This document shows, in pieces, positions 285 to 61,541 of a DNA stretch of 64,000 bases. The stretch's first letter is position 1. Each line of letters opens with the position of its first letter. Both the position numbers and the translations under genes were made by a program. The stretch lies in assembly GCF_041248615.1 (NCBI RefSeq), contig NZ_CP158426.1; one strand, given 5' to 3'. This stretch comes from Escherichia coli. GTDB lineage: Bacteria; Pseudomonadota; Gammaproteobacteria; Enterobacterales; Enterobacteriaceae. Below the pieces are notes generated by a model, which worked only from the letters and a program-made list of their open reading frames with translations, ran no database searches and had not been told where the DNA came from.

Positions 285-3029
285 TCAGAGTGCCTGAGCC
301 AGGTAAGTATCCAGCCATTCATGGGGCTGCATTCCTTCCCGGTAGAGAGAGTCGAAGATTTCCAGGTTGTCGGCGCTGCCGCTCATGACTTTTGTGTACC
401 TGCCGATCCCGGAAAGATCGAGCGTCACACGTGCAGCAAAACGCTTTATGTCGCCACGTCTAAATTGATTTTTTACCACTACGTACTGACGGGCCTGAGG
501 ATCCAGGGCTTTCACGACGTCGAACACTTCCGGCTCAAACTTCATTCCGTCGACATAGTGTTCCCTGTCAGCACTGGGGTTGGCTGCCAGGATCTGCGTG
601 CCGCACTGCTCAATCACGGCAGGCGCAATTTCATCCCTGATGATCTCCGCCGGGGACTGTGTTCCAACAACCAGCATCCCGTTTAGCTTGCGGATAGTTT
701 TCAGTCGGTTATAGGCGAAATCCTTAAAAACCGGATCCCGTAGCCATTTCCAGAACTCATCCATGAAGATAACCAGTCGACGTCCGTCGAGTAGGCTGGT
801 AATGCGGTACAGCAGATAAAAGGAGATCGGTGCGCAGATATTCGTATCGTCAAGAAACTCTGTGCCGTCAATGCCAAAGTTATCGCAGCGACTGATATCG
901 AAGGTGTCTGATGCGTTATCAAACACCCAGCCAAACTCGCCACCCTGCGCCCACTGTGACAGGCGAATACTCAGGCCATTCTCCTGGGCTTCTCGGGTCG
1001 CAGGCTCCGGAAGATTCTCCAGTAAACGGGTGATCCCATGAATACGGTACTGTGGTTCATTACCGATCACCGCCAGTATGGCATCATTTAGACGTCGTTC
1101 ATTGCGGGGCGTGATGGTCGCACCGTTACGCGTACACAGCAGTTTCATCAGCTGACTGATAAAACTGATATTGCGTTTCGTGGGCGATAGCGAAAATGGG
1201 TTCCACCCGGTGGGCTCTCCATGTGTAATACGGTAATAACGGCCTTGCAATGCCCGGATATTCATTTCAGCGCCACGATCCTTATCCAGATAAACGGTTG
1301 TCAGTCGTTTGGTTTTTGCGTCGGGAGAAAAACTCTCCGTACGGCTATATTTCTGCTGCATGTTTTCCAGAAACGTCATGAGCATGGTTTTACCCGAACC
1401 GTTGGTACCGAGAATGCAGGTACTGGCTGGATTCTTCTCGTTGAATTCATCCTTATCCGCCAGCGTATTGTGAAGGTTCAGATAGTATCCATCCCCTGAT
1501 GGGGCACGCAGTAAGGCCATCGCATCCCCCCAGGGCGCATTATCGCGCTTGCCGGGATAGAAATTGTGTAGCGAAGCCAGCTCGACAAAATTCTGACTGC
1601 TCAGCTCACCCTTGCGGGGCCGCAAATGATAATTGCCAGGCAGTTGCGCCATATACCCGGCTGAAAGAGAAAGCGCGGCGGGAACCGATATAATGCCGAG
1701 GTTGTTCAGGGCATTGCTGATTTCGCTGGTATCGGCTACCAGACTATCCAGCGTCTGGGAAAACACCATGATGGAAAAATGGTGTTTTCCATACGCAATT
1801 TTTCCCGATGTCAGCAGGTCAAGCGCCACATCCAGATCCAGCCGCTGAGACACCGCATCATCATCTGAACTCATTAACAGACGTCGGGTGCGTTTGATGG
1901 CCTTCCGGGCTTCTTCCCGTGACATGCAGGTGTAGGACTGTGTGATGACATAATCACAGGGGGCATAAAGCAGAGAATCCATCATTCCAGTTGCTGTTTC
2001 TTCAGGGAACTCTTTAACTTCCAGACCCCGGAAATACTGGGTGCCGCCGGTATGGTTTATCTGTCCAGACTCCCCGGAGAAAAACAGCGCCGCCGATCCC
2101 ATGACGGAATATGCAGGAGCACGGGTGACGCGGATCCTGCGCCATTGGTGCGTCAAGAGATACTCGTAAAAGGATAACTGGGAGGAGAATACCGCCTGTT
2201 CTTCGCTGAAAGTACCAAGAGAGTGTGCGGCGTAGCGTGACAGAGCGGTATCGAGGGTACCTTTAATTTCCAGCATCCCCTGCAACACACCGTCAAGCTC
2301 TTTCAGTTTCTGGCCGTCTTTCATACGCCGGTGTCCGGCTTTTTCCAGACTGGCAAAAGGGCGGTAGCAGGCAGTCAGGAACAAGCGGTTACGGCGAAAC
2401 GGGTTAGCCTCCAGCGAGGCATAATACAGACGGCTGACTTCATCAGCGTAAGGGTTGCCGGATACCTTATGTAGCGAATCGGTAAATGGCTCCCTTACGT
2501 TATGGATATAGAAGGTGACCGGCATCCCCTCGAAAGAGCGGATAATTCCGTGCAACTGGTTACGGTCAATATTGAGCGTTTCTTCTGATTCACAATCGAA
2601 CGGAGTGCCCGTCAGTTCCCAGGTACAGTAGAGGTCACTATTGGGTGAGCGGACGACATGTTGATGAATATGCGATGAATACGGAATGTATTTCCTGAGC
2701 GTGGCACTCTGATTCAATTTCATGACGTTGAGAAACTCCGTGATATCAACAGCATCATGCTCAATGGGCATAAATGCTGTTGCGCCAAATAGACGGTTTG
2801 CCGCAGGTTTTCCTCTTGCCCTGAGCCAGACGGCTATCAGGCTGAACCGCATGGGTTCATTCTTGGTAAGCGATTTCATCAGCAGAAATTCAATCGGGAG
2901 TAGGGCGAGGAAAGCGACGGAGGTCCAGACAGCAATGATGATGGTGATACCCGTGACAGCCAGTAGAGGCACCATCGGCACTCCCCATAGTGCCGCCGGA
3001 CGTCTCATTGCCTTAAGCAGCTTTGCCAT
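285..3029 (-). CDS. virB4: VirB3-VirB4 fusion, T4SS ATPase
   Basis: 914-aa ORF; N-terminal membrane segment (VirB3-like), Walker A GTNGSGKT, CagE/TrbE/VirB4-like length and layout. Confidence 0.85.
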   Translation of the reverse strand: MAKLLKAMRRPAALWGVPMVPLLAVTGITIIIAVWTSVAFLALLPIEFLLMKSLTKNEPMRFSLIAVWLRARGKPAANRLFGATAFMPIEHDAVDITEFLNVMKLNQSATLRKYIPYSSHIHQHVVRSPNSDLYCTWELTGTPFDCESEETLNIDRNQLHGIIRSFEGMPVTFYIHNVREPFTDSLHKVSGNPYADEVSRLYYASLEANPFRRNRLFLTACYRPFASLEKAGHRRMKDGQKLKELDGVLQGMLEIKGTLDTALSRYAAHSLGTFSEEQAVFSSQLSFYEYLLTHQWRRIRVTRAPAYSVMGSAALFFSGESGQINHTGGTQYFRGLEVKEFPEETATGMMDSLLYAPCDYVITQSYTCMSREEARKAIKRTRRLLMSSDDDAVSQRLDLDVALDLLTSGKIAYGKHHFSIMVFSQTLDSLVADTSEISNALNNLGIISVPAALSLSAGYMAQLPGNYHLRPRKGELSSQNFVELASLHNFYPGKRDNAPWGDAMALLRAPSGDGYYLNLHNTLADKDEFNEKNPASTCILGTNGSGKTMLMTFLENMQQKYSRTESFSPDAKTKRLTTVYLDKDRGAEMNIRALQGRYYRITHGEPTGWNPFSLSPTKRNISFISQLMKLLCTRNGATITPRNERRLNDAILAVIGNEPQYRIHGITRLLENLPEPATREAQENGLSIRLSQWAQGGEFGWVFDNASDTFDISRCDNFGIDGTEFLDDTNICAPISFYLLYRITSLLDGRRLVIFMDEFWKWLRDPVFKDFAYNRLKTIRKLNGMLVVGTQSPAEIIRDEIAPAVIEQCGTQILAANPSADREHYVDGMKFEPEVFDVVKALDPQARQYVVVKNQFRRGDIKRFAARVTLDLSGIGRYTKVMSGSADNLEIFDSLYREGMQPHEWLDTYLAQAL

Positions 3030-3039
3030 AGATAACCTC

Positions 3040-3333
3040 TCAGCTCATCAGCAGTGCGCCGATTTCACTGCCTCCACCAATCAGGATGCCGCCAATGATG
3101 ATGTAGGCGCACTGGGACAGGCTTTCGCCTTTCCAGAGTGTCTTGTAACCTACCCAGATCACGGCCACGGTAATGGTGATGGCCGCCAGGCCATTAAGGC
3201 CGGTGGCGACTTTTTCCATCACGGTATTTGCGCGTTGAAAGCCATCGGCAAAAACCGGAGGTACAGAACAAACGATGAGTGCAAATGCGGAAACATGACT
3301 GAAAGCGGCCTTAAGTTTGCAGCAAAGTGTCAT
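3040..3333 (-). CDS. virB2: VirB2-like pilin
   Basis: 97-aa ORF with signal-like N-terminus and two hydrophobic segments, placed between virB1 and virB3/4. Confidence 0.55.
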   Translation of the reverse strand: MTLCCKLKAAFSHVSAFALIVCSVPPVFADGFQRANTVMEKVATGLNGLAAITITVAVIWVGYKTLWKGESLSQCAYIIIGGILIGGGSEIGALLMS

Positions 3334-4088
3334 TATTCTTTCTCCTCACGGGGTGACAGGGAGAGGCTCCGGCGCAATGACGGCGTAGAGATCTTTTCTA
3401 TGGCAATTTTCTTCTGGCGGAATTTTGAGGGGACGCCACGAACCACGCCCTTCGGCCAGATCACGCAGGGACGTAACTGGTCACCTGCAGGCGTAGGCTT
3501 CAGGAACGGCGGGGGTGTCAATTTATCCTCGTGGGTTCCGGGTACGGCATAGTGGGGAGCAGCAGCGTAACCGATTCGTTGCACATAGCTGGTTCCGGAA
3601 AAAGCCGCTTCCGGCTGTTCTCCGGTACGGAAATTGCCGGAGTAGTAGCAACTCAGTGCTCTTTTCAGCGAGCCGCCGCGTCGGTAACAGTCGTTGAGGA
3701 TGTGTTCGAAAACAGACAAATTGGTACAGGGATCAAGCAGCTCAGAGGCTGTCACACCGTAATGATGGAAATTGGTGCTGGTAATTTGCATCAGCCCCAC
3801 AGAATAACGGCGGCTCTGCGCCATAAGGCGACCTATGATTCGCTCGGCTCTTTCCCGGCTGGTGGGCTGATGAGAAATGATTTTATTGTGACCGAAGGTG
3901 CCTGAGCCCTTTGGGATAATTTCGGCGATCGCATAAGGGTTAAAATTGGACTCCACCCTTACGACGTCGAGTGCTGTGGACGGATGAATGCTGGTGGCAC
4001 ACTGCATGGCCACCGCCAGAAAGGCAGATGTGGAAAGCATAGTAGCCTCGGGAATGCGGGCAGCGTACATAGCCAAAGAACCATGCAT
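3333..4088 (-). CDS. virB1: VirB1-like lytic transglycosylase
   Basis: 251-aa ORF with SLT-type motifs (VESNFNPYA, GLMQI); first gene of the virB cluster; true start may be internal. Confidence 0.7.
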   Translation of the reverse strand: MHGSLAMYAARIPEATMLSTSAFLAVAMQCATSIHPSTALDVVRVESNFNPYAIAEIIPKGSGTFGHNKIISHQPTSRERAERIIGRLMAQSRRYSVGLMQITSTNFHHYGVTASELLDPCTNLSVFEHILNDCYRRGGSLKRALSCYYSGNFRTGEQPEAAFSGTSYVQRIGYAAAPHYAVPGTHEDKLTPPPFLKPTPAGDQLRPCVIWPKGVVRGVPSKFRQKKIAIEKISTPSLRRSLSLSPREEKE

Positions 4089-4677
4089 GCTGAGGGAAAC
4101 TTGAAGGGGTAATGTGTGGTTTCGAGATTGTGAGCACTTTGCGCCGGATTTCCGAAGCCATAATAAAGGGTTTCATGAGATATTCTTTACAGGGCTTTTG
4201 ATTCGGGTAAATGCGGCACTAATGTTTTTGAAGTAGATGTTTTATTTCAGCGTGTCTGTTGAAAATTCAAGACCGACAAAATGATGTCACTTGGTTTTAT
4301 CTGGATAGTCTCTAATCAAAATAATAATTAATGGGTCACATCCCAATTCTGCATTCCGATTTCAACGGGTCAGCGAGAACATTCAGCGGCACACTGAATT
4401 AAGGTTGTGTGATAGCCTGATATAAATTATTAAAGAACGGTGCTCGACCAGGCTGAATAAATGCCTAACTGTCAGGTCGATGAGCAGAAACACTATCAGG
4501 ATGGATTTAATTAATATAAATTGGAATGATAAAGTGAAAATGAAATGATAAGAGTTTTTCGGGGATGAATTTTAGTAGTGTAAGGGGAGGGGGATATAAT
4601 CGATGATTGTGTTTGTACTAATAGTGAAATATAAAGACGTGCGGGGTTTTAATTCCCTGCACGCCTTACTGTTAACA

Positions 4678-18922: not shown

Positions 18923-19012
18923 GGAGAGATGCCGGAGCGGCTGAACGGACCGGTCTCGAAAACCGGAGTGGGGGCAACTCCACCGGGGGTTCAAATCCCC
19001 CTCTCTCCGCCA
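18923..19012 (+). tRNA. serU: tRNA-Ser (anticodon CGA), serU-like; 3' half is attL
   Basis: GGAGAGATGCCGGAGCGGCTGAACGGACCGGTCTCGAAAACC...GGGGGTTCAAATCCCCCTCTCTCCGCCA; long variable arm; 90 nt. Confidence 0.9.
18951..19012 (+). repeat. attL (3' portion of tRNA-Ser)
   Basis: 62 bp matching 60161-60222 with two substitutions. Confidence 0.8.
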
Positions 19013-19057: not shown

Positions 19058-19090
19058 CTTGGAATTACTTGGAATATTTTCTTGGAATAT
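19058..19090. repeat. Three direct CTTGGAAT repeats in the attL arm (putative Int/Xis arm sites)
   Basis: CTTGGAATTACTTGGAATATTTTCTTGGAATATTTTC overlapping the int 3' end. Confidence 0.4.
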
Positions 19091-20090
19091 TTTCAGGTAA
19101 CGGGACATCAAGTGTTGGTGAAACTTTAACCTTCCTGTCATAGATTAGCACTTGCCCTTCGGTTTTGTGACCAGAGAAAAGTTGCTTATCCCGGCTGCTT
19201 CCTTCATAGTCTGAAATTCCTTTCGCCTTCAGATCATGAAAGGTGAAGTCGGTTAAAATACCTGAAATTTTTCCAGCACGATTTCTTGCATCTACCCACA
19301 TTTCGTTAAAGCCTTTGTACATATATCGGTTGCCGTATTGATTGCTGATCACATAGGCAGATTTTGGTAACTGTTTTGCTTTTTCGATCGCTGCCTGTAA
19401 TCGTGGACTCCATGCTTTTATCTGTTTTTTTCCGGTTTTCCCTTGCTGGATGAATATCCCGTCGTTTCCAATCTGTTCCCATTTCAGCGATAACACATCG
19501 GAAACCCTCGCTGCACACAGATAGGCAATTTCCATTGCGATAAAAACAGGAAGAGGTGCAACGCTTAATACTGCCTGGTATTCTTTGTCGGTTACATATC
19601 GTTCGCGGTTTTTGGCCTTGAATTTACTTACACCTGCACATGGGTTAGCCTTCACGTACCCTCGCTCATACCCCCAACTGTAAACACGGGACATACTGCT
19701 TTTTTCATGGTTGGCTTGCGTTTTACTCTGCTCCCCTCTTTTGTCCATGTATCGACGGATGTGTTCTGGTTTTATGGAATCCGCTGGTACCTTACCGAAT
19801 ACGGCAAGCAACTTTTTTTGATGTTGCAGATAATCTTTTTGTGTTCTTGGACTAAGGTCACTGTAATAGGCGCTGGCGAGGAATTTTTCCCACAAGCGAC
19901 CGAATGTCATTGCACGATCGCGATTATTTACAGTTTCCTCATACTTTTTCCATAAAGCAGCTAAACCATCCTTGATGGCGGTTAGTGTGACAGATTCTCT
20001 GGATGTTGGTTTCCATACATAACTATATTTATTTGGGTATACATTTGGAGGTAATTTTTCGTGTTCAGGATTTTTCCTTCGTCTTCCCAT
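19065..20090 (-). CDS. Phage tyrosine integrase
   Basis: 341-aa ORF adjacent to attL; C-terminal catalytic region with conserved R...H..R...Y spacing. Confidence 0.9.
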   Translation of the reverse strand: MGRRRKNPEHEKLPPNVYPNKYSYVWKPTSRESVTLTAIKDGLAALWKKYEETVNNRDRAMTFGRLWEKFLASAYYSDLSPRTQKDYLQHQKKLLAVFGKVPADSIKPEHIRRYMDKRGEQSKTQANHEKSSMSRVYSWGYERGYVKANPCAGVSKFKAKNRERYVTDKEYQAVLSVAPLPVFIAMEIAYLCAARVSDVLSLKWEQIGNDGIFIQQGKTGKKQIKAWSPRLQAAIEKAKQLPKSAYVISNQYGNRYMYKGFNEMWVDARNRAGKISGILTDFTFHDLKAKGISDYEGSSRDKQLFSGHKTEGQVLIYDRKVKVSPTLDVPLPENIPRKYSK

Positions 20091-33295: not shown

Positions 33296-33401
33296 GTGCC
33301 ACTTATCTCGGATAGACATGGTGAATGCGCTAGTGGAGGAGATAAGGGTGATTTTTGAATGCTTGCAACATTGATTTCGTAACGTTATTATCCTGCGCCC
33401 G

Positions 33402-33477
33402 GCCCTTTAGCTCAGTGGTGAGAGCGAGCGACTCATAATCGCCAGGTCGCTGGTTCAAATCCAGCAAGGGCCACCAG
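33402..33477 (+). tRNA. tRNA with CAT anticodon (Met or Ile2, ileZ-like)
   Basis: GGCCCTTTAGCTCAGTGGTGAGAGC...CTCATAATCGC...GGTTCAAATCCAGCAAGGGCCACCA. Confidence 0.8.
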
Positions 33478-33478
33478 C

Positions 33479-33555
33479 CGCCACTAGCTCATCAGGAAAG
33501 AGCGTCAACCCTTTAAGTTGAGTGTGCGAGGTTCGAGTCCCCGGTGGCGGTCCAG
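33479..33555 (+). tRNA. tRNA-like gene, anticodon ambiguous (loop CCTTTAA, nominal TTT)
   Basis: 7-bp acceptor stem CCGCCAC/GTGGCGG, D and T arms present, CCA end; atypical C at position 33; T-stem has one A-C mismatch. Confidence 0.5.
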
Positions 33556-33556
33556 T

Positions 33557-33633
<77 letters not shown>

Positions 33634-33635
33634 AT

Positions 33636-33711
<76 letters not shown>

Positions 33712-51561: not shown

Positions 51562-54500
51562 ATGGGTAAAGGCAGCAGTAAGGGGCATACCCCGCGCGAA
51601 GCGAAGGACAACCTGAAGTCCACGCAGTTGCTGAGTGTGATCGATGCCATCAGCGAAGGGCCGATTGACGGTCCGGTGGATGGATTAAAAAGCGTGCTGC
51701 TGAACAGTACGCCAGTGCTGGACAGTGAGGGGAATACCAATATCTCCGGTGTCACGGTGGTGTTCCGGGCAGGTGAGCAGGAGCAGACACCGCCGGAGGG
51801 ATTTGAATCCTCCGGCTCCGAGACGGTGCTGGGTACGGAAGTGAAATACGACACGCCGATCACCCGGACCATCACGTCGGCAAACATTGACCGACTGCGT
51901 TTTACCTTCGGCGTGCAGGCACTGGTGGAAACCACCTCAAAGGGGGACAGGAATCCGTCGGAAGTCCGCCTGCTGGTTCAGATACAACGTAACGGTGGCT
52001 GGGTGACGGAAAAAGACATCACCATTAAAGGCAAAACCACCTCACAGTATCTGGCCTCGGTGGTGGTGGATAACCTGCCGCCGCGCCCGTTTAATATCCG
52101 GATGCGCAGGATGACGCCGGACAGCACCACAGACCAGCTGCAGAACAAAACGCTCTGGTCGTCATACACCGAAATTATCGATGTGAAACAGTGCTACCCG
52201 AACACGGCACTGGTCGGCGTGCAGGTGGATTCGGAGCAGTTCGGCAGCCAGCAGGTGAGCCGTAATTATCATCTGCGCGGGCGTATTCTGCAGGTGCCGT
52301 CGAATTATAATCCGCAGACGCGGCAATACAGCGGTATCTGGGACGGAACGTTTAAACCGGCATACAGCAACAACATGGCATGGTGTCTGTGGGATATGCT
52401 GACCCACCCGCGCTACGGCATGGGGAAACGTCTTGGTGCGGCGGATGTGGACAAATGGGCGCTGTATGTCATCGGCCAGTATTGCGACCAGTCGGTGCCG
52501 GACGGTTTTGGCGGCACGGAGCCGCGCATCACCTGTAACGCTTACCTGACCACACAGCGTAAGGCGTGGGATGTGCTCAGTGATTTCTGCTCGGCGATGC
52601 GCTGTATGCCGGTATGGAACGGGCAGACGCTGACGTTCGTGCAGGACCGACCGTCGGATAAGGTGTGGACCTATAACCGCAGTAATGTGGTGATGCCGGA
52701 TGATGGCGCGCCGTTCCGCTACAGTTTCAGCGCCCTGAAGGACCGCCATAATGCCGTTGAGGTGAACTGGATTGACCCGGATAACGGCTGGGAAACGGCA
52801 ACAGAGCTTGTGGAGGACACGCAGGCCATTGCCCGTTACGGTCGTAATGTCACGAAGATGGATGCCTTTGGCTGTACCAGTCGGGGGCAGGCGCACCGCG
52901 CCGGGCTGTGGCTGATTAAAACGGAACTGCTGGAAACGCAGACCGTGGACTTCAGCGTGGGTGCGGAAGGGCTTCGCCATGTACCGGGGGATGTCATTGA
53001 AATCTGCGATGATGACTATGCGGGTATCAGCACCGGCGGGCGCGTGCTGGCGGTGAACAGCCAGACCCGGACGCTGACGCTCGACCGTGAAATCACGCTG
53101 CCATCCTCCGGTATCACGCTGATAAGCCTGGTTGACGGAAGTGGCAATCCGGTCAGCGTGGAGGTTCAGTCCGTCACCGACGGCGTGAAGGTAAAAGTGA
53201 GCCGTGTTCCTGACGGTGTTGCTGAATACAGCGTATGGGGGCTGAAGCTGCCGACGCTGCGCCAGCGACTGTTCCGCTGCGTGAGTATCCGTGAGAACGA
53301 CGACGGCACGTATGCCATCACTGCCGTGCAGCATGTACCGGAGAAAGAAGCCATCGTGGATAACGGGGCGTACTTTGACGGCGACCAGAGCGGAACGGTG
53401 AACGGTGTCACGCCGCCCGCGGTGCAGCACCTGACTGCAGAAGTCACCGCAGACAGCGGGGAATACCAGGTGCTGGCGCGCTGGGACACGCCGAAGGTGG
53501 TGAAGGGGGTGAGCTTTATGCTTCGCCTGACCGTGGCAGCGGATGACGGCAGTGAGCGGCTGGTCAGCACGGCCAGGACGACGGAAACCACATACCGCTT
53601 CAGGCAACTGGCGCTGGGGCGTTACACGCTGACGGTCCGGGCGGTAAATGCGTGGGGACAGCAGGGCGATCCGGCATCGGTATCGTTCCGGATTGCCGCA
53701 CCGGCAGCGCCGTCGCGGATTGAGCTGACGCCGGGCTATTTTCAGATAACTGCCACGCCGCATCTTGCGGTTTATGATCCGACGGTACAGTTTGAGTTCT
53801 GGTTCTCGGAAAAGCGGATTGCGGATATCAGGCAGGTTGAAGCCAGCGCGCGTTATCTTGGTACGGCGCTGTACTGGATAGCCGCCAGTATCAATATCAA
53901 ACCGGGCCATGATTATTATTTTTACATTCGCAGTGTGAACACCGTTGGCAAATCGGCATTCGTGGAGGCTGTTGGCCAGCCGAGTGATGATGCATCCGGC
54001 TATCTGGATTTTTTCAAAGGCGAGATAGGGAAAACCCATCTGGCTCAGGAGCTGTGGACGCAGATTGATAACGGTCAGCTTGCGCCTGACCTGGCTGAAA
54101 TCAGGACGTCCATTACGGATGTCAGCAATGAAGTCACGCAGACCGTCAATAAGAAACTGGAAGACCAGAGTGCGGCAATTCAGCAGATACAGAAGGTTCA
54201 GGTTGATACAAATAATAACCTGAACAGCATGTGGGCTGTGAAGCTGCAGCAGATGCAGGACGGACGCCTTTATATCGCGGGTATTGGTGCCGGTATTGAG
54301 AATACCCCTGACGGCATGCAGAGTCAGGTGCTGCTGGCGGCGGACAGGATTGCGATGGTTAATCCTGCGAATGGCAACACAAAGCCGATGTTTGTTGGTC
54401 AGGGCGATCAGATATTCATGAACGAAGTGTTCCTGAAATATCTGACGGCTCCCACCATTACCAGCGGCGGTAATCCTCCGGCATTTTCCCTGACACCGGA

Positions 54501-55041
54501 CGGGCGGCTGACGGCGAAAAATGCCGATATCAGCGGTAACGTGAATGCGAACTCCGGGACGCTCAACAACGTCACGATTAACGAGAACTGCCGGGTTCTG
54601 GGAAAACTGTCCGCGAACCAGATTGAAGGCGATCTCGTTAAAACAGTGGGCAAAGCTTTCCCCCGGGACTCCCGTGCACCGGAACGCTGGCCATCAGGGA
54701 CCATTACCGTCAGGATTTATGACGATCAGCCGTTTGACCGGCAGATTGTTATTCCGGCGGTGGCATTCAGCGGCGCTAAGCATGAGAGAGAGCATACTGA
54801 TATTTACTCCTCATGCCGTCTGATAGTGCGGAAAAACGGTGCTGAAATTTATAACCGTACCGCGCTGGATAATACGCTGATTTACAGTGGCGTTATTGAT
54901 ATGCCTGCCGGTCACGGTCACATGACGCTGGAGTTTTCGGTGTCAGCATGGCTGGTAAATGACTGGTATCCCACAGCAAGTATCAGCGATTTGCTGGTTG
55001 TGGTGATGAAGAAAGCCACCGCAGGCATCAGTATCAGCTGA
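51562..55041 (+). CDS. J: Host specificity protein J (central tail fibre)
   Basis: 1159-aa ORF, lambda J-like position and length. Confidence 0.9.
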
Positions 55042-55060
55042 ATTTTATAACCCCAATACG

Positions 55061-55087
55061 GGCGTCAGAAATGACGCCTTTTTTATT
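55061..55087 (+). terminator. Intrinsic terminator after J
   Basis: GGCGTCA-GAAA-TGACGCC then TTTTTT. Confidence 0.55.
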
Positions 55088-55108
55088 GCAGAAAAGCGAG
55101 AGGTAATT

Positions 55109-55708
55109 ATGCGTAAATTATGTGCTGTTATTCTGTCCGCAGTAGTCTGGCTGGTTGCCGCTGGTACGCCAGCGAGCGCAGCAGAGCATCAGTCCACACT
55201 AAGCGCCGGGTATCTTCAGACCCATACTGATATGCCAGGCAGTGATGACCTGAAGGGCATTAACGTGAAATACCGTTATGAATTTACGGACACGCTGGGG
55301 CTGGTGACGTCATTCAGTTATGCCAATGCCAAAGATGAGCAAAAAACGCATTACAGCGATACCCGCTGGCATGAAGATTCAGTGCGTAACCGCTGGTTCA
55401 GCATGATGGCGGGGCCATCTGTACGCGTGAATGAATGGTTCAGTGCTTATGCGATGGCAGGTGTGGCTTACAGCCGTGTTTCGACGTTCTCCGGGGATTA
55501 TCTCCGCGTAACTGACAACAAGGGGAAAACGCACGATGTGCTGACCGGAAGTGATGACGGTCGCCACAGCAACACGTCTCTGGCGTGGGGAGCTGGCGTG
55601 CAGTTTAACCCGACCGAATCCGTGGCCATTGATATTGCTTATGAAGGCTCCGGCAGTGGTGACTGGCGCACTGACGGTTTCATCGTGGGTGTCGGTTATA
55701 AATTCTGA
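55109..55708 (+). CDS. lom: Lom/Ail-family outer-membrane protein
   Basis: 199-aa ORF with signal peptide and 8-strand beta-barrel pattern, C-terminal GVGYKF. Confidence 0.85.
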   Translation: MRKLCAVILSAVVWLVAAGTPASAAEHQSTLSAGYLQTHTDMPGSDDLKGINVKYRYEFTDTLGLVTSFSYANAKDEQKTHYSDTRWHEDSVRNRWFSMMAGPSVRVNEWFSAYAMAGVAYSRVSTFSGDYLRVTDNKGKTHDVLTGSDDGRHSNTSLAWGAGVQFNPTESVAIDIAYEGSGSGDWRTDGFIVGVGYKF

Positions 55709-55734
55709 TTAGCCAGGTAACACAGTGTTATGAC

Positions 55735-55761
55735 AGCCCGCCGGTTCAGGCGGGCTTTTTT
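55735..55761 (+). terminator. Intrinsic terminator after lom
   Basis: AGCCCGCC-GGTTCA-GGCGGGCT then TTTTTT. Confidence 0.55.
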
Positions 55762-55766
55762 GTGGA

Positions 55767-58151
55767 GTGGATATGGCAGCAGTAAAAATCTCAGGTGTGC
55801 TGAAAGATGGTGCGGGAAAACCAATACAGAACTGCACTATTCAACTGAAGGCAAAGCGTAACAGCACCACGGTACTGGTGAACACGGTGGCTTCTGAAAA
55901 TCCGGATGAAGCCGGACGTTACAGCATGGATGTTGAGTATGGCCAGTACAGCGTCACCCTGCTGGTTGAAGGTTTTCCGCCTTCACATGCCGGGACCATT
56001 ACCGTCTATGAAGGTTCCAGACCAGGTACGCTGAATGATTTTCTCGGTGCCATGACGGAAGATGATGTCATGCCGGAGGCATTGCGTCGTTTTGAGGCAA
56101 TGGTGGAAGAAGCGGCACGCAACGCCGAAGCCGCCTCTCAGAGCGCAGCGGCGGCAAAGAAATCCGAAACTGCAGCGGCATCATCGAAGAACGCGGCGAA
56201 AACCTCAGAAACGAATGCAGCTAACAGCGCACAGGCGGCAGCGACCTCACAGACTGCATCGGCAAACTCCGCGACAGCAGCCAAAAAATCAGAAACCAAC
56301 GCGAAAAACAGCGAGACAGCCGCAAAGACGAGCGAAACCAACGCAAAGTCCAGCCAGACGGCAGCGAAGACCAGCGAAACGAATGCCAAAGCCAGTGAAA
56401 CTGCGGCAAAAAACAGCCAGGTTGCAGCAGCCCAAAGCGAGAGCGCGGCAGCCGGTTCTGCGACTTCAGCAGCCGGATCAGCAACTGCTGCGGCTAACAG
56501 CCAGAAAGCTGCGAAGACGAGTGAAACTAACGCAAAGTCCAGCCAGACGGCAGCGAAGACCAGCGAAACGAATGCCAAAGCCAGTGAAACTGCGGCGAAA
56601 AACAGTCAGGATGCTGCAGCCCAAAGCGAGAGTGCCGCAGCTGGTTCTGCAAGTGCGGCGGCTTCTTCTGCCACTGCATCAGCCAACAGTCAAAAAGCTG
56701 CAAAAACCAGTGAAACCAACGCAAAGGCGAGCGAGACTGCGGCGGCTAACTCGGCGAAAGCATCCGCTGCAAGCCAGACGGCTGCAAAAGCAAGTGAAGA
56801 CGCAGCCAGAGAGTATGCAAGCCAGGCTGCGGAGCCGTATAAACAAGTTTTGCAGCCGCTTCCCGATGTGTGGATACCGTTTAACGATTCACTGGATATG
56901 ATTACGGGCTTTTCGCCATCATATAAAAAGATTGTTATTGGCGACGACGAAATAACGATGCCTGGTGACAAGGTTGTTAAGTTTAAACGCGCATCGAAAG
57001 CAACCTATATTAATAAATCTGGTGTACTGACAGAGGCTGCCATTGACGAGCCGCGATTTGAACGTGATGGCCTGCTTATTGAGGGGCAAAGAACTAATCT
57101 TCTGCTTAATTCAACAAATCCATCTAAATGGAATAAGTCAGGCAATCTGGAACTCACAGAAATATCCACGGATTCTTTTAATTTTACTTATGGGAGATTT
57201 ACTGTAAAAGATACTCTTATTGATCAGACAAGTGCGATTAATATCGTAACGGTTTCTGGCAGTAAAGGATTTGATGTCACAGGTGATGAAAAATATGTGA
57301 CCATTTCATGCCGTGTCAGAAGTGATGTTGAAAATATAAGGTGTCGTTTAAGATTTGAACATCATGATGGTTCTACTTACACTTTTTTGGGAGATGCTTA
57401 CCTCAATTTATCAACACTTGTAATTGATAAGACTGGTGGTGCAGCAAATCGTATTATTGCAAAGGCTGTAAAAGATGAGGCTACTGGTTGGATTTTCTAT
57501 CAGGCTACAATTAATGCACTAGATACAGAGAGCATGATTGGTGCGATGGTTCAATATGCTCCAGTAAAAGGTTCAGGCACAGCATCTGGAGACTATCTGG
57601 ATATCGCAACTCCACAAGTGGAAGGTGGATCAAGTGCTTCGTCATTTATTGTAACTGATATAATTGCAAGCACTCGCGCAAGCGATATGGTGACAGTCCC
57701 AATCAAGAATAACCTTTATAATCTTCCTTTTACAGTTCTTTGTGAGGTACATAAGAACTGGTATAAAACGCCAAATGCAGCACCGCGTGTTTTTGATACC
57801 GGCGGTCATCAAACCGGAGCGGCTATTATTCTTGGCTTCGGTCGTTCAACAGATTACGACGGATTTCCTTATTGCGATATAGGTTTGGCTAACAGACGGG
57901 TAAACGAAAACGCATCGCTTGAAAAAATGGTTATGGGGATGCGTGTAAAGTCAGATCAGTCTACGTGCTCAGTAAGTAACGGGCGTATATCCAGCGAAAA
58001 GAAAGCCACATGGTCCTATATTCAGAACACCGCAATTATCCGTATTGGAGGCCAGACTACAGCCGGGTTGCGTCATTTATTTGGTCATGTCAGGAATTTC
58101 AGAATATGGCACAAGGCATTGACTGATGCTCAGGTGGGGGAGTCAATCTAA
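55767..58151 (+). CDS. stf: Side tail fibre (Stf-like) with Ala-rich repeat region
   Basis: N-terminus MAAVKISGVLKDGAGKPIQNCTIQLKAKRNSTTVLVNTV close to lambda Stf; variable C-terminal half. Confidence 0.8.
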   Translation: MDMAAVKISGVLKDGAGKPIQNCTIQLKAKRNSTTVLVNTVASENPDEAGRYSMDVEYGQYSVTLLVEGFPPSHAGTITVYEGSRPGTLNDFLGAMTEDDVMPEALRRFEAMVEEAARNAEAASQSAAAAKKSETAAASSKNAAKTSETNAANSAQAAATSQTASANSATAAKKSETNAKNSETAAKTSETNAKSSQTAAKTSETNAKASETAAKNSQVAAAQSESAAAGSATSAAGSATAAANSQKAAKTSETNAKSSQTAAKTSETNAKASETAAKNSQDAAAQSESAAAGSASAAASSATASANSQKAAKTSETNAKASETAAANSAKASAASQTAAKASEDAAREYASQAAEPYKQVLQPLPDVWIPFNDSLDMITGFSPSYKKIVIGDDEITMPGDKVVKFKRASKATYINKSGVLTEAAIDEPRFERDGLLIEGQRTNLLLNSTNPSKWNKSGNLELTEISTDSFNFTYGRFTVKDTLIDQTSAINIVTVSGSKGFDVTGDEKYVTISCRVRSDVENIRCRLRFEHHDGSTYTFLGDAYLNLSTLVIDKTGGAANRIIAKAVKDEATGWIFYQATINALDTESMIGAMVQYAPVKGSGTASGDYLDIATPQVEGGSSASSFIVTDIIASTRASDMVTVPIKNNLYNLPFTVLCEVHKNWYKTPNAAPRVFDTGGHQTGAAIILGFGRSTDYDGFPYCDIGLANRRVNENASLEKMVMGMRVKSDQSTCSVSNGRISSEKKATWSYIQNTAIIRIGGQTTAGLRHLFGHVRNFRIWHKALTDAQVGESI
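56322..56700 (+). repeat. Tandem duplication (~2 x 189 bp) inside stf
   Basis: Near-identical units starting at 56322 and 56511, encoding KTSETNAKSSQTAAKTSETNAKASETAAKNSQ.AAAQSESAAAGSA. Confidence 0.6.
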
Positions 58152-58432
58152 TGAAAGATTTAACACTCAAATTTGCCGACAGGGCCGACTTTTCGGCCTT
58201 TATGGAGAGTGCCGGCTATTATGATGACGAGTCGATGCAGGATGATATTCTTATTGACGTGATAGGTAACGTGTACAAAGAAACCGGAGAACTTACCGAA
58301 GATGGCGAGCCGGTATGTGTTAAGGAAGACGGATATTTTGTAAACGTGCGCATCATTAATGATGCAAAAAAATCGTCAATATTCGATGAATACGTGGTTG
58401 CTGTTGAGCATCAACTTCGTGGCTGGATGTGA
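58151..58432 (+). CDS. Hypothetical protein (93 aa), coupled to stf
   Basis: ATG overlaps stf stop; acidic protein; unlike known Tfa chaperones to my recollection. Confidence 0.4.
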   Translation: MKDLTLKFADRADFSAFMESAGYYDDESMQDDILIDVIGNVYKETGELTEDGEPVCVKEDGYFVNVRIINDAKKSSIFDEYVVAVEHQLRGWM

Positions 58433-58441
58433 GGAAGAAAA

Positions 58442-59482
58442 ATGGCTACATCGACAGTAATTCCTGAAGACATCAAAACGCTAAAATCCGACGTTAGCAA
58501 ATTAAAAAACGATCAAGGAAGCTACGCAACAAAATCATATGTAGACAATAAAACAACATGGAATAGTTATTGCAATGTAATCTATGATCAAAAGACATTG
58601 CCGACCACTGGAACTATATTTAGCGGTAAGATTCACTTGTCAAATAAGACAGGAGAAACCGAAAACGCTTATAGTGAGATGTACACTAGAAAAAATATTG
58701 ACGGTACAAAAGATACAATGACAAGGATTGTCACACACAATGGAACAAAAGGTATCTTTTGGGATTTTAGCGATCTTTACGGTGGAACATTAATTTTTCC
58801 AGGCAGTGATGGTTACCTTAAGATGGGGAACTGTCTCATGTCGTATGGTGTGCGGGGAAGTAACGCGCTTATTAAGTTTGACTGCACAGACACATTACAA
58901 ATCAAATATGCCAATCATGGGTCAACCATGACAATCAACACACAGGGAACCGCTCATTCTGGCGCTACTACTAGTTTGTGGGGTAACTCTACCCGTCCGG
59001 TTGTATATGAAGTTGGTGCTGATGGTGGCGCTTATATGTTCTATGCGCAGAAAAATACCGATAACACCTATATGTTAAGCGTTAATGGTGCATGTCATGC
59101 CACCGCATTTAACCAGCATTCCGACCGGGATCTGAAAGACAACATTCAGGTGATCGATAATGCAACCGACCGCATCCGTAAAATGAACGGCTATACATAC
59201 ACGCTTAAAGAAAACGGTATGCCCTATGCTGGTGTCATTGCACAGGAAGCTCTGGAAGCAATCCCAGAAGTTGTAGGTTCCGCAATGAAATATCAGGACG
59301 GTGCAAGCGGATCGGAAGGTGAAGAAGGTGAACGTTATTACACAGTAGATTATTCTGGTGTTACTGGCTTGCTTGTTCAGGTAGCCAGAGAGTCAGACGA
59401 CAGAATAACAGCACTGGAAGAAGAAAACGCAGAATTAAGACAAAGATTATCTGCAATTGAGGCGGCGCTTGCGTCTAAATAA
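58442..59482 (+). CDS. Tail fibre/tailspike-like protein with C-terminal intramolecular chaperone (S74-like) domain
   Basis: C-terminal DRDLKDNIQVIDNATDRIRKMNGYTYTLKENGMPYAGVIAQEALEAIPEVV...RITALEEENAELRQRL. Confidence 0.65.
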   Translation: MATSTVIPEDIKTLKSDVSKLKNDQGSYATKSYVDNKTTWNSYCNVIYDQKTLPTTGTIFSGKIHLSNKTGETENAYSEMYTRKNIDGTKDTMTRIVTHNGTKGIFWDFSDLYGGTLIFPGSDGYLKMGNCLMSYGVRGSNALIKFDCTDTLQIKYANHGSTMTINTQGTAHSGATTSLWGNSTRPVVYEVGADGGAYMFYAQKNTDNTYMLSVNGACHATAFNQHSDRDLKDNIQVIDNATDRIRKMNGYTYTLKENGMPYAGVIAQEALEAIPEVVGSAMKYQDGASGSEGEEGERYYTVDYSGVTGLLVQVARESDDRITALEEENAELRQRLSAIEAALASK

Positions 59483-59488
59483 TATCAA

Positions 59489-59511
59489 GGGGCCGAGCGC
59501 CCCGTTTTATT
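59489..59511 (+). terminator. Intrinsic terminator after tail fibre gene
   Basis: GGGGC-CGAGC-GCCCC then GTTTTATT. Confidence 0.45.
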
Positions 59512-59812
59512 GGGTAGGATGAAAATGGATATAACACCTTTCCTTCATGCGCTTTGTGCTGTGGCTGCGCAGCTACTGATTGGTCTTTTTACCGGGAACT
59601 GGGCTTACGGGGCGATAGCCGGTTGTACGTTCTTCATTGCGCGTGAACACACCCAGGCAGAATATCGCTGGATTGAAATGTTTGGGCATGGCAAGAGGAT
59701 TAACATGCCGTGGTGGGGCGGTTTTGATCCGCGCGTGTGGGATGTGGCAAGCCTGATGGATTTTGCTGTGCCGGTGGTGGCGTGTCTGCTGATCTGGATG
59801 TTGATCCGTTAA
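59510..59812 (+). CDS. Small membrane protein at prophage right end
   Basis: 100-aa ORF with 2-3 hydrophobic segments; last ORF before attR. Confidence 0.4.
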   Translation: MGRMKMDITPFLHALCAVAAQLLIGLFTGNWAYGAIAGCTFFIAREHTQAEYRWIEMFGHGKRINMPWWGGFDPRVWDVASLMDFAVPVVACLLIWMLIR

Positions 59813-60160
59813 ATATAAAAAGTAAAAAGCCGCAGTAACTTGTCATGATAGGATACTGCGGCTGGCTGGTTAACTTTCGATAGTGCGAGTATTGAATGAT
59901 TTCCAGCCGTTACCGATTTTATATAACTGCAGTGGAATTATTCAACACACAGGCAAAACGGAATAAGCTGAGAAAAAAGCGTGCTTACCCAATCTGGGGT
60001 AAATCACGTCTGAATGACACCTGAAAACAGGTGGTGGCCTCAAGAAGGCTTGGAATATTCTTCTTTAATGTTATGTAATTTATTGATTTTTCGTGTACGA
60101 TTTTAAGACATTTATTCCAAGAAAAGTTTTTAACTCTTTGATTTTTCGACTCTGTATCAT

Positions 60161-60222
60161 CGGTCTCGAAAACCGGAGTAGGGGCAACTCTACCGGGGGT
60201 TCAAATCCCCCTCTCTCCGCCA
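60161..60222 (+). repeat. attR (displaced 3' fragment of tRNA-Ser)
   Basis: 62 bp matching attL/tRNA 3' half with two substitutions (GAGTAGGGG...CTCTACC versus GAGTGGGGG...CTCCACC). Confidence 0.8.
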
Positions 60223-60776
60223 CTTTATCAATGACTTATCTCCCGATTTCCCGCCTTGCTTTTCCTAAACAGAACAATCGTAGAATATTCTTGAAGGGTT
60301 AGATCGTCACTGTTTTCTGTTCGATACTGTGACATTCAGCACTTGATTCGCTATGGATCTGACAGGAAGCTTTCGAGCGAAAATCTGCAGTTATTCAGTC
60401 GTTTTCTTATCGGTCACCATTATTCTTTTAGACATTGATCCTACAAAGCTGCCGCAAAGTTGGTGGTGGGAACTGAAGTTGCGTAGAGAAGGGGGCAATA
60501 ATTGAGCAAAAAAAGGAACGCGGCCGTCAGATTAAAGCCGCGGGACAAAGTCCATAATTTCCAAGAGTTGTTGAATTTCCCAGCTTTTTTGAAAGCCTTT
60601 GTATCATACTAACAAGTAAAAAAGGTTTAAATACCAAAATTAACCTATATTTCTGGTTAGCTTTACCATGACAGATGACTTGCTCCTGGAGACATTGGCG
60701 CAGCCAGTCTGTATTGGTGAGTTGTGTATTTATTGTTCGCCGTTTTCTCAGTTTTTTCTACAGACATAATAAAAAA

Positions 60777-60806
60777 GACACGTCTCAAGCATGAGCGTGT
60801 CTGAGT
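60777..60806 (-). terminator. Putative zinT terminator
   Basis: Imperfect hairpin GACACGTCTC...GAGCGTGTC followed on the minus strand by a T-run. Confidence 0.4.
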
Positions 60807-60890
60807 TTGTCTTATTTATTTGTCTTGGTAAATTATTGTCGTTACTACCAGGCACTATTCTGTTAAATAATTGAAGTCAGCGCAAAAAAA

Positions 60891-61541
60891 TCAATGAGAC
60901 ATCATTTCCTCGACCACTTCTTCGCTACTCAACTGATACGGATAATACGTTGGCCAGTTTTCCATTTCATTCAATAAAGATTGCTGTGAATCATTACCCA
61001 TAAAAATGTGAAAATGAGATGATTTTCGTGGTGCAATTATATGATCGCTAAATTGAATATATTTAGGGGCTTTGCTTTCAGGATCTTTACATTCGAATAA
61101 GTAACGAACGCCTTTCTTGCCTGATTTATAGGTGAGTATTTTGTATCCCTCGTAATCATATTTACAGGATATTGTTGAATTATTTCTATGGAATTCAACA
61201 ATGCCGTCCTCAATGCCAATCATCTCGATATCTGTCACATAACCTTTGCGATAATAATCTTTAATTTCAGCAAATGTTTTAGTTTTATCTGCATCCGCTT
61301 TCTTCTGAAAGACGGGGTCAAGTTTGCCACTTTGCAGTAAAGGATAAACGGATTGCCAGACTCCATCCCAGTCACTTAGCGTTCGGTTTTGTACATTGGC
61401 ATCATCAAAAACACCATTAGCAGCTTTTTGTTCGACCTCTGTTAAGGGTTTGCCGTGTGAGTGATGACCATGCGAAAAGGCAGGAGCGCTAACAATAAAG
61501 ACACCTAAAGCAACAGCCAGTTTATGAAGACGAATCGCCAA
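60891..61541 (-). CDS. zinT: ZinT (YodA) periplasmic zinc/cadmium-binding protein
   Basis: 216-aa ORF; signal peptide and His-rich HGHHSHGKP metal site. Confidence 0.85.

Follow-up and report, generated by a model that had tools for sequence, protein, structure and literature searches.

A putative two-part lateral-fibre cassette and an adjacent candidate membrane moron in a lambdoid prophage of Escherichia coli

What kind of receptor-binding apparatus is encoded at the end of a lambdoid prophage in which the side tail fibre gene, stf, is followed by genes for a small acidic protein and a second fibre-like protein? The question is raised by a prophage of Escherichia coli contained in a chromosome segment of 64,000 nucleotides (RefSeq assembly GCF_041248615.1, contig NZ_CP158426.1), to which we refer throughout as the window. 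Its final genes are, in order, J (51562-55041), lom (55109-55708), stf (55767-58151), orf93 (58151-58432), orf346 (58442-59482) and orf100 (59510-59812). An earlier sequence-only reading had correctly located the last four of these open reading frames (ORFs), all on the plus strand, and had described 58151-59812 as an unusual distal tail-fibre module, comprising a receptor-binding cassette swapped in after stf and a possible exclusion gene or moron at the prophage end. Our analysis points to a modified interpretation, to which we assign a probability of about 0.6 as a whole: 56851-59482 would be a self-contained lateral-fibre cassette joined to a lambda-type Stf N-terminus and specifying a two-part fibre, with orf100 as an accompanying moron.

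We observed that a fibre gene encoding an Stf-type C-terminus and, overlapping its end, an orf93 gene recur together in lambdoid, T1-like, 9g-like, T5-like and rV5-like phages and in a phage-plasmid, with carriers in the genera Warwickvirus (swan01), Nonagvirus (ESCO3), Seuratvirus (VogelGryff), Vequintavirus (Alma) and Tequintavirus (IrisVonRoten), together with the phage-plasmid PhiR41_1. The third gene, where present, is found in the lambdoid, T1-like, 9g-like and T5-like phages, and is absent from phage 21, ev207 and PhiR41_1. Its product measures 346/351 amino acids (aa) in the window, Tritos and ESCO3, 224 in swan01, 388 in VogelGryff and 574 in IrisVonRoten (gp24), and a 234-aa allele is present in many E. 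coli prophages. The part common to these proteins consists of the first ~37 residues, with the motif MATSTVIP-DI--LK-DVS-LK-D, and a Peptidase_S74 domain, which scores above cutoff in the 346-, 234- and 388-aa forms and is borderline in the 224-aa protein of swan01 (21.8 bits against 22). We interpret the Stf C-terminus, orf93 and the third gene as a conserved unit of at least four phage groups and a phage-plasmid, in which orf93 belongs to the fibre module and is no oddity.

A described counterpart of this unit is provided by the T5-like phage IrisVonRoten (Bas32; PMC11990801), whose gp22, gp23 and gp24 are homologous by BLASTP to Stf, orf93 and orf346, respectively, and are encoded in the identical order. 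In that work gp22 was modelled as the proximal fibre, its C-terminal domain being galectin-like, with gp24 joined to it as the distal fibre; gp23 is not discussed there. Stf aa 133-794 are 54% identical to gp22, orf93 is 37% identical to gp23 (E 5e-24), the small gene overlaps the fibre stop codon in both systems, and gp24 shares the N-terminal motif of orf346 and likewise ends in an S74 domain. The two systems nevertheless differ in several respects. The attachment domain of the window Stf is of the lambda type (phage_tail_N) and not of the T5 type; orf346 falls 228 residues short of gp24, its alignment being confined to gp24 aa 264-571, and is devoid of the ~230-aa Gp12-like receptor-binding domain RBD1; and orf100 is found in the window only. 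Thus, unlike gp24, which combines a Gp12-like RBD1 with a T5-like RBD2, orf346 is probably not T-shaped.

The extent of the exchanged DNA could be traced by comparison with virulent phages. Megablast against the virulent Nonagvirus ESCO3 aligned window positions 56853-59410 (query 1087-3644) at 90.1% identity, and against the T5-like Salmonella phage FGS017 it aligned 56851-58126 (query 1085-2360) at 92.7%. The left junction, at about Stf aa 362, coincides with a drop in GC content from ~0.55 to ~0.38 at 56800-57000, and upstream of 56851 Stf is lambda-like. Given this block of ~90% identity, the fall in GC content and the lambda-like character of the upstream Stf, we take the exchanged unit to comprise the C-terminal half of Stf, orf93 and orf346, and not just the genes after stf. 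With ~90% DNA identity to virulent phages, this cassette spans 56851-59410 on the plus strand and takes in Stf from aa ~362 to its end at 794, the whole of orf93, and orf346 as far as aa ~323. Hence, the earlier suggestion of a swapped receptor-binding cassette holds as far as horizontal exchange is concerned, but its left junction lies inside stf, at about 56851, rather than at 58151.

The stf gene itself (55767-58151, plus strand) encodes 794 aa when read from GTG 55767, PGAP having chosen ATG 55773, and its product belongs to PHROG 1419. Stf is laid out as a lambda-type tail-attachment N-terminus, a repeat-rich shaft and C-terminal lectin-like domains. Residues 5-134 match the Pfam domain phage_tail_N (E 1e-66), and residues 5-97 align with the lambda Stf N-terminus in PDB 9e7m (E 8e-49). 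The shaft-coding DNA contains a 189-bp tandem repeat at 56307-56744 (2.3 copies, 84% matches, with nested 42/21-bp periods), over which the AT skew is very high, reaching 0.66. Comparison with 21 distinct close relatives showed 88-99% identity over aa 1-440 and 27-56% over aa 441-760; the latter stretch, encoded by 57087-58046 on the plus strand, is by its identity profile a candidate glycan-binding region. The NCBIfam domain GTA_spike_fiber was detected at aa 437-638 above cutoff (E 1.9e-15), and a weak match to Laminin_G_3 near the C-terminus fell below cutoff (E 0.008).

With the lambda Stf/Tfa system the window shares a closely related Stf N-terminus and an identical gene position after J and lom. 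It differs from lambda in that the C-terminal two thirds of Stf are unrelated, a second fibre gene is present and a Tfa (Caudo_TAP) gene is missing: as the sequence-only reading had proposed, no Tfa-type chaperone follows stf, orf93, orf346 and orf100 all being without a Caudo_TAP match in Pfam, NCBIfam and PHROGs.

If the C-terminus of this Stf has neither a Tfa partner nor an S74 chaperone, what is the role of the protein encoded right behind it? The start codon of orf93 (58151-58432, plus strand) overlaps the stf stop as ATGA, such that its translation is predicted to be coupled to that of stf. Its product is indeed acidic, with an isoelectric point of 4.19 and 21 D/E against 9 K/R residues. 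It has no match in Pfam, NCBIfam or PADLOC; its family, PHROG 1361, to which IrisVonRoten gp23 belongs, is labelled 'unknown function'. The family is small: clustering at 50% left 52 representatives in a set of 1.8 billion proteins. AlphaFold2 (AF2) predicts a confident compact alpha/beta fold (predicted local distance difference test score, pLDDT, 87; predicted template-modelling score 0.74), for which neither structure nor sequence comparison gave a significant relative of known function, and a profile search with the orf93 alignment against PDB sequences likewise returned nothing significant. In phage 21, Tritos, swan01, ESCO3, VogelGryff, Alma, PhiR41_1 and IrisVonRoten the orf93 homologue overlaps the stop codon of the preceding fibre gene by 1 or 4 nt, and the C-terminal 370-740 aa of the fibres encoded by these preceding genes are homologous to Stf, ending in ...HLFGHVRNFRIWHKALTD....

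Since orf93 is kept without the third gene, is coupled to the fibre gene, and accompanies an Stf C-terminus for which there is no other chaperone, we posit that it is most likely an assembly factor for this C-terminus. Alternatively, it might remain in the virion as a structural adaptor or hinge connecting Stf with the distal fibre, comparable to T4 gp35/gp36. We consider this possible though distinctly less likely: the retention of orf93 in phage 21, ev207 and PhiR41_1, all of which are without the third gene, counters a pure adaptor, even if the same observation is no proof of a chaperone.

The product of orf346 (58442-59482, plus strand; PHROG 4563, annotated as tail fiber) is predicted to be a short distal fibre that ends in an intramolecular chaperone domain. 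A hidden Markov model search identified Pfam Peptidase_S74 (PF13884) at aa 227-278 with E 6.2e-14 and 52.5 bits, well above the gathering cutoff of 22, which bears out the earlier description of this protein as fibre-like with an S74-like domain. Position 1 of the profile falls on residue 227, and the S-x4-K dyad formed by S227 and K232 is at least 90% conserved in 40 homologues. The chaperone domain would hence comprise aa 227-346 (59120-59482, plus strand), with self-cleavage predicted before S227. In the AF2 model aa 304-345 form a C-terminal helix, and T5-like, rV5-like and S16 gp37 fibres end in sequences homologous to the C-terminal part of the protein. Like the S74 fibres exemplified by the K1F endosialidase, T5 pb1 and S16 gp37, orf346 has PF13884 in C-terminal position and the S-x4-K dyad at the domain start; it differs from them in its very short mature part (predicted 226 aa) and in having no enzymatic domain.

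Comparison of orf346 with 23 distinct close relatives revealed three zones: aa 1-40 are 83-95% identical, aa 41-120 only 49-72%, and aa 141 to the end 76-99%. The variable stretch, encoded by 58562-58801 on the plus strand and bordered by flanks of 83-99% identity, coincides with the best-modelled part of the AF2 monomer, a beta domain at aa 45-118 with pLDDT ~82, and is a candidate receptor-binding domain on account of both the identity profile and the model. The conserved N-terminal ~37-40 aa (MATSTVIPEDIKTLKSDVSKLKND...; 58442-58561, plus strand), shared across phage groups, are a candidate docking segment. They are the sole part that orf346 has in common with the 224-aa protein of swan01 (62% identity), the 234-aa prophage allele and IrisVonRoten gp24, and are present in 28 phage records from lambdoid phages, Nonagvirus and T1-like phages. 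Since the tails and tip proteins of the carrier phages are unrelated, the docking partner of this segment should be internal to the module; most simply, the conserved N-terminus would dock on the Stf C-terminus or orf93.

This logic parallels that of Golomidova et al. (PMC4728585), who deduced the attachment of LtfB in phage DT57C from a short conserved N-terminus. The branched lateral tail fibres LtfA/LtfB of DT57C and DT571/2 (PMC4728585, PMC10713586) likewise consist of a tail-anchored fibre through which a second S74 fibre is attached. They are unlike the window in that both LtfA and LtfB carry S74 and no small intervening protein is described; the likeness, drawn from the descriptions in these papers only, is functional. 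A different arrangement, in which orf346 is an independent fibre seated directly on the baseplate or tail tip without need of Stf, has a precedent in ManiWeber Gp114, a short S74-bearing fibre that binds the baseplate directly (PMC11990801). It is nevertheless improbable in our view: the N-terminal motif is used in lambdoid, T1-like, 9g-like and T5-like phages despite their unrelated tail-tip proteins, it always co-occurs with an Stf-type C-terminus and orf93, and the N-terminus of orf346 extends over only ~40 aa, without an anchor domain in the model.

Taking these strands together, we propose the following scheme for the two-part fibre. By homology to the solved lambda structure, Stf would be anchored to the tail via its phage_tail_N domain, and its coiled-coil shaft would end in the hypervariable lectin-like domains (aa 441-760), which probably bind a surface glycan. 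orf93 would be made 1:1 with Stf through translational coupling and serve most likely as assembly factor, less likely as structural adaptor. orf346, as suggested by its family, would trimerise with the aid of its own S74 domain and then cut itself before S227 to leave a 226-residue fibre, whose conserved 37-aa N-terminus would dock on the Stf C-terminus and/or orf93 and whose variable domain (aa 41-120) may supply a second binding specificity. The outcome would be a side fibre in two parts, each with an exchangeable binding module, presumably mediating reversible adsorption to O-antigen or other glycans. Each of the two candidate receptor-binding regions, in Stf and in orf346, lies between conserved segments that could act as recombination handles.

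Some observations weigh against parts of this scheme. The lectin assignment of the Stf tip depends on one domain model above cutoff and one below. The structure prediction recommended for orf346 delivered the beta domain, but as a monomer of modest overall quality (pLDDT 60.6), and the fold search was uninformative.

How common is this layout? The sequence-only reading had deemed the module unusual, a view that we cannot uphold: among 5,426 complete E. coli genomes, a stretch amounting to 80% or more of 58151-59812 was detected in 629 and at least some portion in 1,905 (35%), all four genes are also found in the sequenced phages Tritos, 2G7b, HannyBb and PhiR63_1, and the products of stf, orf93, orf346 and orf100 all fall in existing PHROG families. 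Window positions 58000-60300 are 100% identical at the DNA level to strain NRZ14408 (NZ_LT599825.1). Our allele survey covered 80 IMG/VR prophage loci with an orf93 92-99% identical to that of the window, that is, close relatives only; the third gene is the 346-aa allele in 30 of these and the 234-aa allele in another 30, both with the same Stf C-terminal allele, and orf100 comes next in nearly all loci long enough to show it. In Rosetta2-DE3, a widely used laboratory B strain of the BL21 lineage, a two-piece match covers 37% of 58151-59812 (NZ_CP083274.1, 4435407-4436686), a pattern consistent with orf93, a different third-gene allele (possibly that of 234 aa) and orf100. The cassette is best viewed, from these comparisons, as the lambdoid member of a known, widely exchanged two-part lateral-fibre type with a common layout, and nothing in its analysis points to a new principle.

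These comparisons bear on whether the module is merely a decaying, non-functional remnant, as might be suspected from the frequent defectiveness of E. coli prophages and from its location at the prophage end. All four ORFs are, however, intact, the DNA is 99.9-100% identical across many genomes, the four genes recur together in the phage genome records named above, and the variable binding domains between conserved flanks indicate selection; we regard decay as very improbable indeed.

A Pin-like serine invertase gene lies directly after orf100 in Tritos (locus L002, 6737-7327), HannyBb and PhiR63_1. For the window itself we rejected a fibre switch based on an invertible segment of the Pin/Gin type: there is no invertase, and inverted repeats are confined to a hairpin at 59828-59863, a perfect, directly adjacent 18-nt inverted repeat (plus strand) located just after orf100.

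What, then, is orf100, the gene behind the fibre cassette? The full ORF of 100 aa runs from 59510 to 59812, but ATG 59525, which is preceded by an AGGA ribosome-binding site and was also chosen by PGAP, is the likely start, giving a product of 95 aa (59525-59812, plus strand; PHROG 1443). The earlier call of a 100-aa membrane protein adjacent to attR was therefore right as to hydrophobic stretches and to position, 349 bp separating the orf100 stop from attR, and probably wrong as to length. In the 95-aa form the hydrophobic stretches lie at aa ~1-39 and 71-95, with a charged 35-residue loop between them. The topology signals conflict, the positive-inside rule placing this loop in the cytoplasm and a TMHMM note in the phage 21 record placing it in the periplasm. 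Thirteen residues (H8, G29, R40, E41, Q44, E46, Y47, R48, G66, F67, W72, D79 and P83) are invariant in 37 homologues, which include sequences from Aeromonas and Halomonas phages and a Comamonas prophage. We found no relative of orf100 in Pfam, NCBIfam, PADLOC or PDB, and it is hypothetical in every source; a profile search with its alignment against PDB sequences gave nothing significant, and Pfam scans of the 37 homologues yielded just sub-threshold matches to the PhoR N-terminal domain, a membrane hairpin. Roles in lysis, as a holin, or in a defence system were considered and found no support. Nor did our search of the literature on PhiR/ECOR13 phages and lambdoid S74 side fibres reveal a paper treating orf93 or orf100.

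As to genomic context, orf100 follows orf93 in phage 21, lies between the tailspike and integrase genes in the P22-like phage Gally, follows the Tfa gene in Hapunavirus phiHAP-1 and a J-like protein gene in Comamonas, and is also present in the phage-plasmid PhiR41_1. In P2/HP1-like prophages of Aeromonas media, A. salmonicida and Leclercia adecarboxylata (loci L096-L098, ~4001-4309) the homologue sits mid tail operon, at the stop codon of a Phage_tail_fib fibre gene, whose product also carries Peptidase_S74 in two of the three. It is absent from five virulent phages with the fibre module (ESCO3, swan01, VogelGryff, Alma and IrisVonRoten). These neighbourhoods suggest that orf100 is linked to receptor-binding genes generally and not to the prophage end, so the proposal of a moron at the prophage end stands insofar as orf100 behaves like a moron, but is to be amended for this linkage and for the mid-operon position in P2/HP1-like prophages. 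Because the linked binding proteins are unrelated to one another, the function of orf100 cannot be receptor-specific. We consider a role in lysogenic conversion or exclusion plausible: orf100 would stand outside the fibre as a membrane-protein gene that travels with mainly temperate phages beside whichever receptor-binding gene is present, most likely as a lysogenic-conversion or superinfection-exclusion moron.

In this respect orf100 resembles exclusion genes such as llp of T5 and cor of T1, phi80 and N15, and morons such as lom: it occurs directly after receptor-binding genes, mainly in temperate phages, and in Gally shows a terminator-promoter-gene layout, with a strong 9-bp-stem terminator and a 190-bp AT-rich spacer containing a 9/12 promoter-like site ahead of the gene. 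Llp and Cor, by contrast, are outer-membrane lipoproteins matching the receptor of the linked binding protein, whereas orf100 has no lipobox and is strongly conserved beside unrelated binding proteins. Between orf346 and orf100 the window has a terminator-like GC hairpin (5 bp) followed by GTTTTATT (59489-59503, plus strand), which a consensus scan picked out; as evidence it is weak, and terminator-like sites are no more numerous in the region than in shuffled sequence.

Several facts speak against a moron role. The gap between orf346 and orf100 in the window is only 42 nt, with no convincing promoter; in phage 21 and the P2-like prophages orf100 abuts the upstream gene and looks co-transcribed with the late tail genes; partial matches occur in large phages that may not be temperate; and one Aeromonas homologue lies in a non-phage chromosomal setting. 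The last of these, in Aeromonas rivipollensis (locus L094, 5001-5309), is situated between pirin and RIO1 kinase genes, near two lipid A acyltransferase genes. This neighbourhood, which may be a coincidence, agrees with another possibility, namely that orf100 is a borrowed envelope-modifying or housekeeping-type membrane protein, acting for instance on lipopolysaccharide or lipid, and not a superinfection-exclusion protein. The location in Gally fits as well, as other P22-like phages carry the conversion genes gtr or oac between the tailspike and integrase genes. Moreover, the 35-residue loop hardly varies: H, R, E, Q, Y and D residues are kept across Escherichia, Aeromonas, Comamonas and Halomonas, suggesting a conserved target or catalysis. 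Yet 95 residues are small for an enzyme, and orf100 has no family, structural or defence-database match; we hold an envelope-modifying function to be unlikely, if worth bearing in mind, and retain the conversion or exclusion moron as the preferred reading.

In phage 21 a sitABCD metal-transporter cargo follows directly after the orf100 homologue (locus L004, 4886-8335), and the homologues of orf93 and orf100 have no gene for a distal fibre between them.

The prophage, ~41 kb in length, is integrated in the tRNA-Ser gene serU (18923-19012). Its attachment sites, attL (18951-19012) and attR (60161-60222, plus strand), are imperfect copies, 62 bp long, of the 3' part of serU, the attR copy being the displaced one. 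What distinguishes the two is a compensatory pair within the variable arm, with GGAGTGGGG...CTCCACC at attL against GGAGTAGGG...CTCTACC at attR, which is consistent with a tRNA end supplied by the phage at attL. The integrase gene (19065-20090, minus strand) adjoins attL, at the opposite end from the fibre genes, and the chromosomal genes to the right of attR are zinT, msrQ, msrP and hiuH. A cluster of four tRNA genes (Met, Lys, Thr and Gly) lies within the prophage at 33401-33710, and lom is bordered on both sides by terminator-like hairpins (55060-55079 and 55735-55756), the classic layout of a moron. An Rfam search of 55000-61000 detected no RNA family.

At ~90% DNA identity, the cassette documents a recent exchange of receptor-binding modules in which a temperate lambdoid prophage and virulent phages of the Nonagvirus and T5-like groups took part. 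The Stf shaft offers a clear recombination handle at the left; orf93, the candidate 37-aa docking motif and the S74 domain offer others around the variable parts. Such handles are directly usable to engineer the host range of lambda-based particles. It is a tentative thought that the orf93 family (PHROG 1361) represents a new class of tail-fibre assembly factors or adaptors for lectin-ended fibres and, jointly, the orf100 family a new conversion or exclusion class. If the latter were true, the orf100 family would be a widespread and hitherto unrecognised cell-membrane protein with a role in conversion or exclusion. Its gene would be kept beside the receptor-binding genes by gammaproteobacterial temperate phages of sipho-, myo- and podovirus type, as well as by one or more Comamonas prophages, and the protein would act on a conserved host component via its near-invariant AREHTQAEYRW...MPWWGGFD loop. 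A function for these two uncharacterised small proteins would improve the annotation of many prophages.

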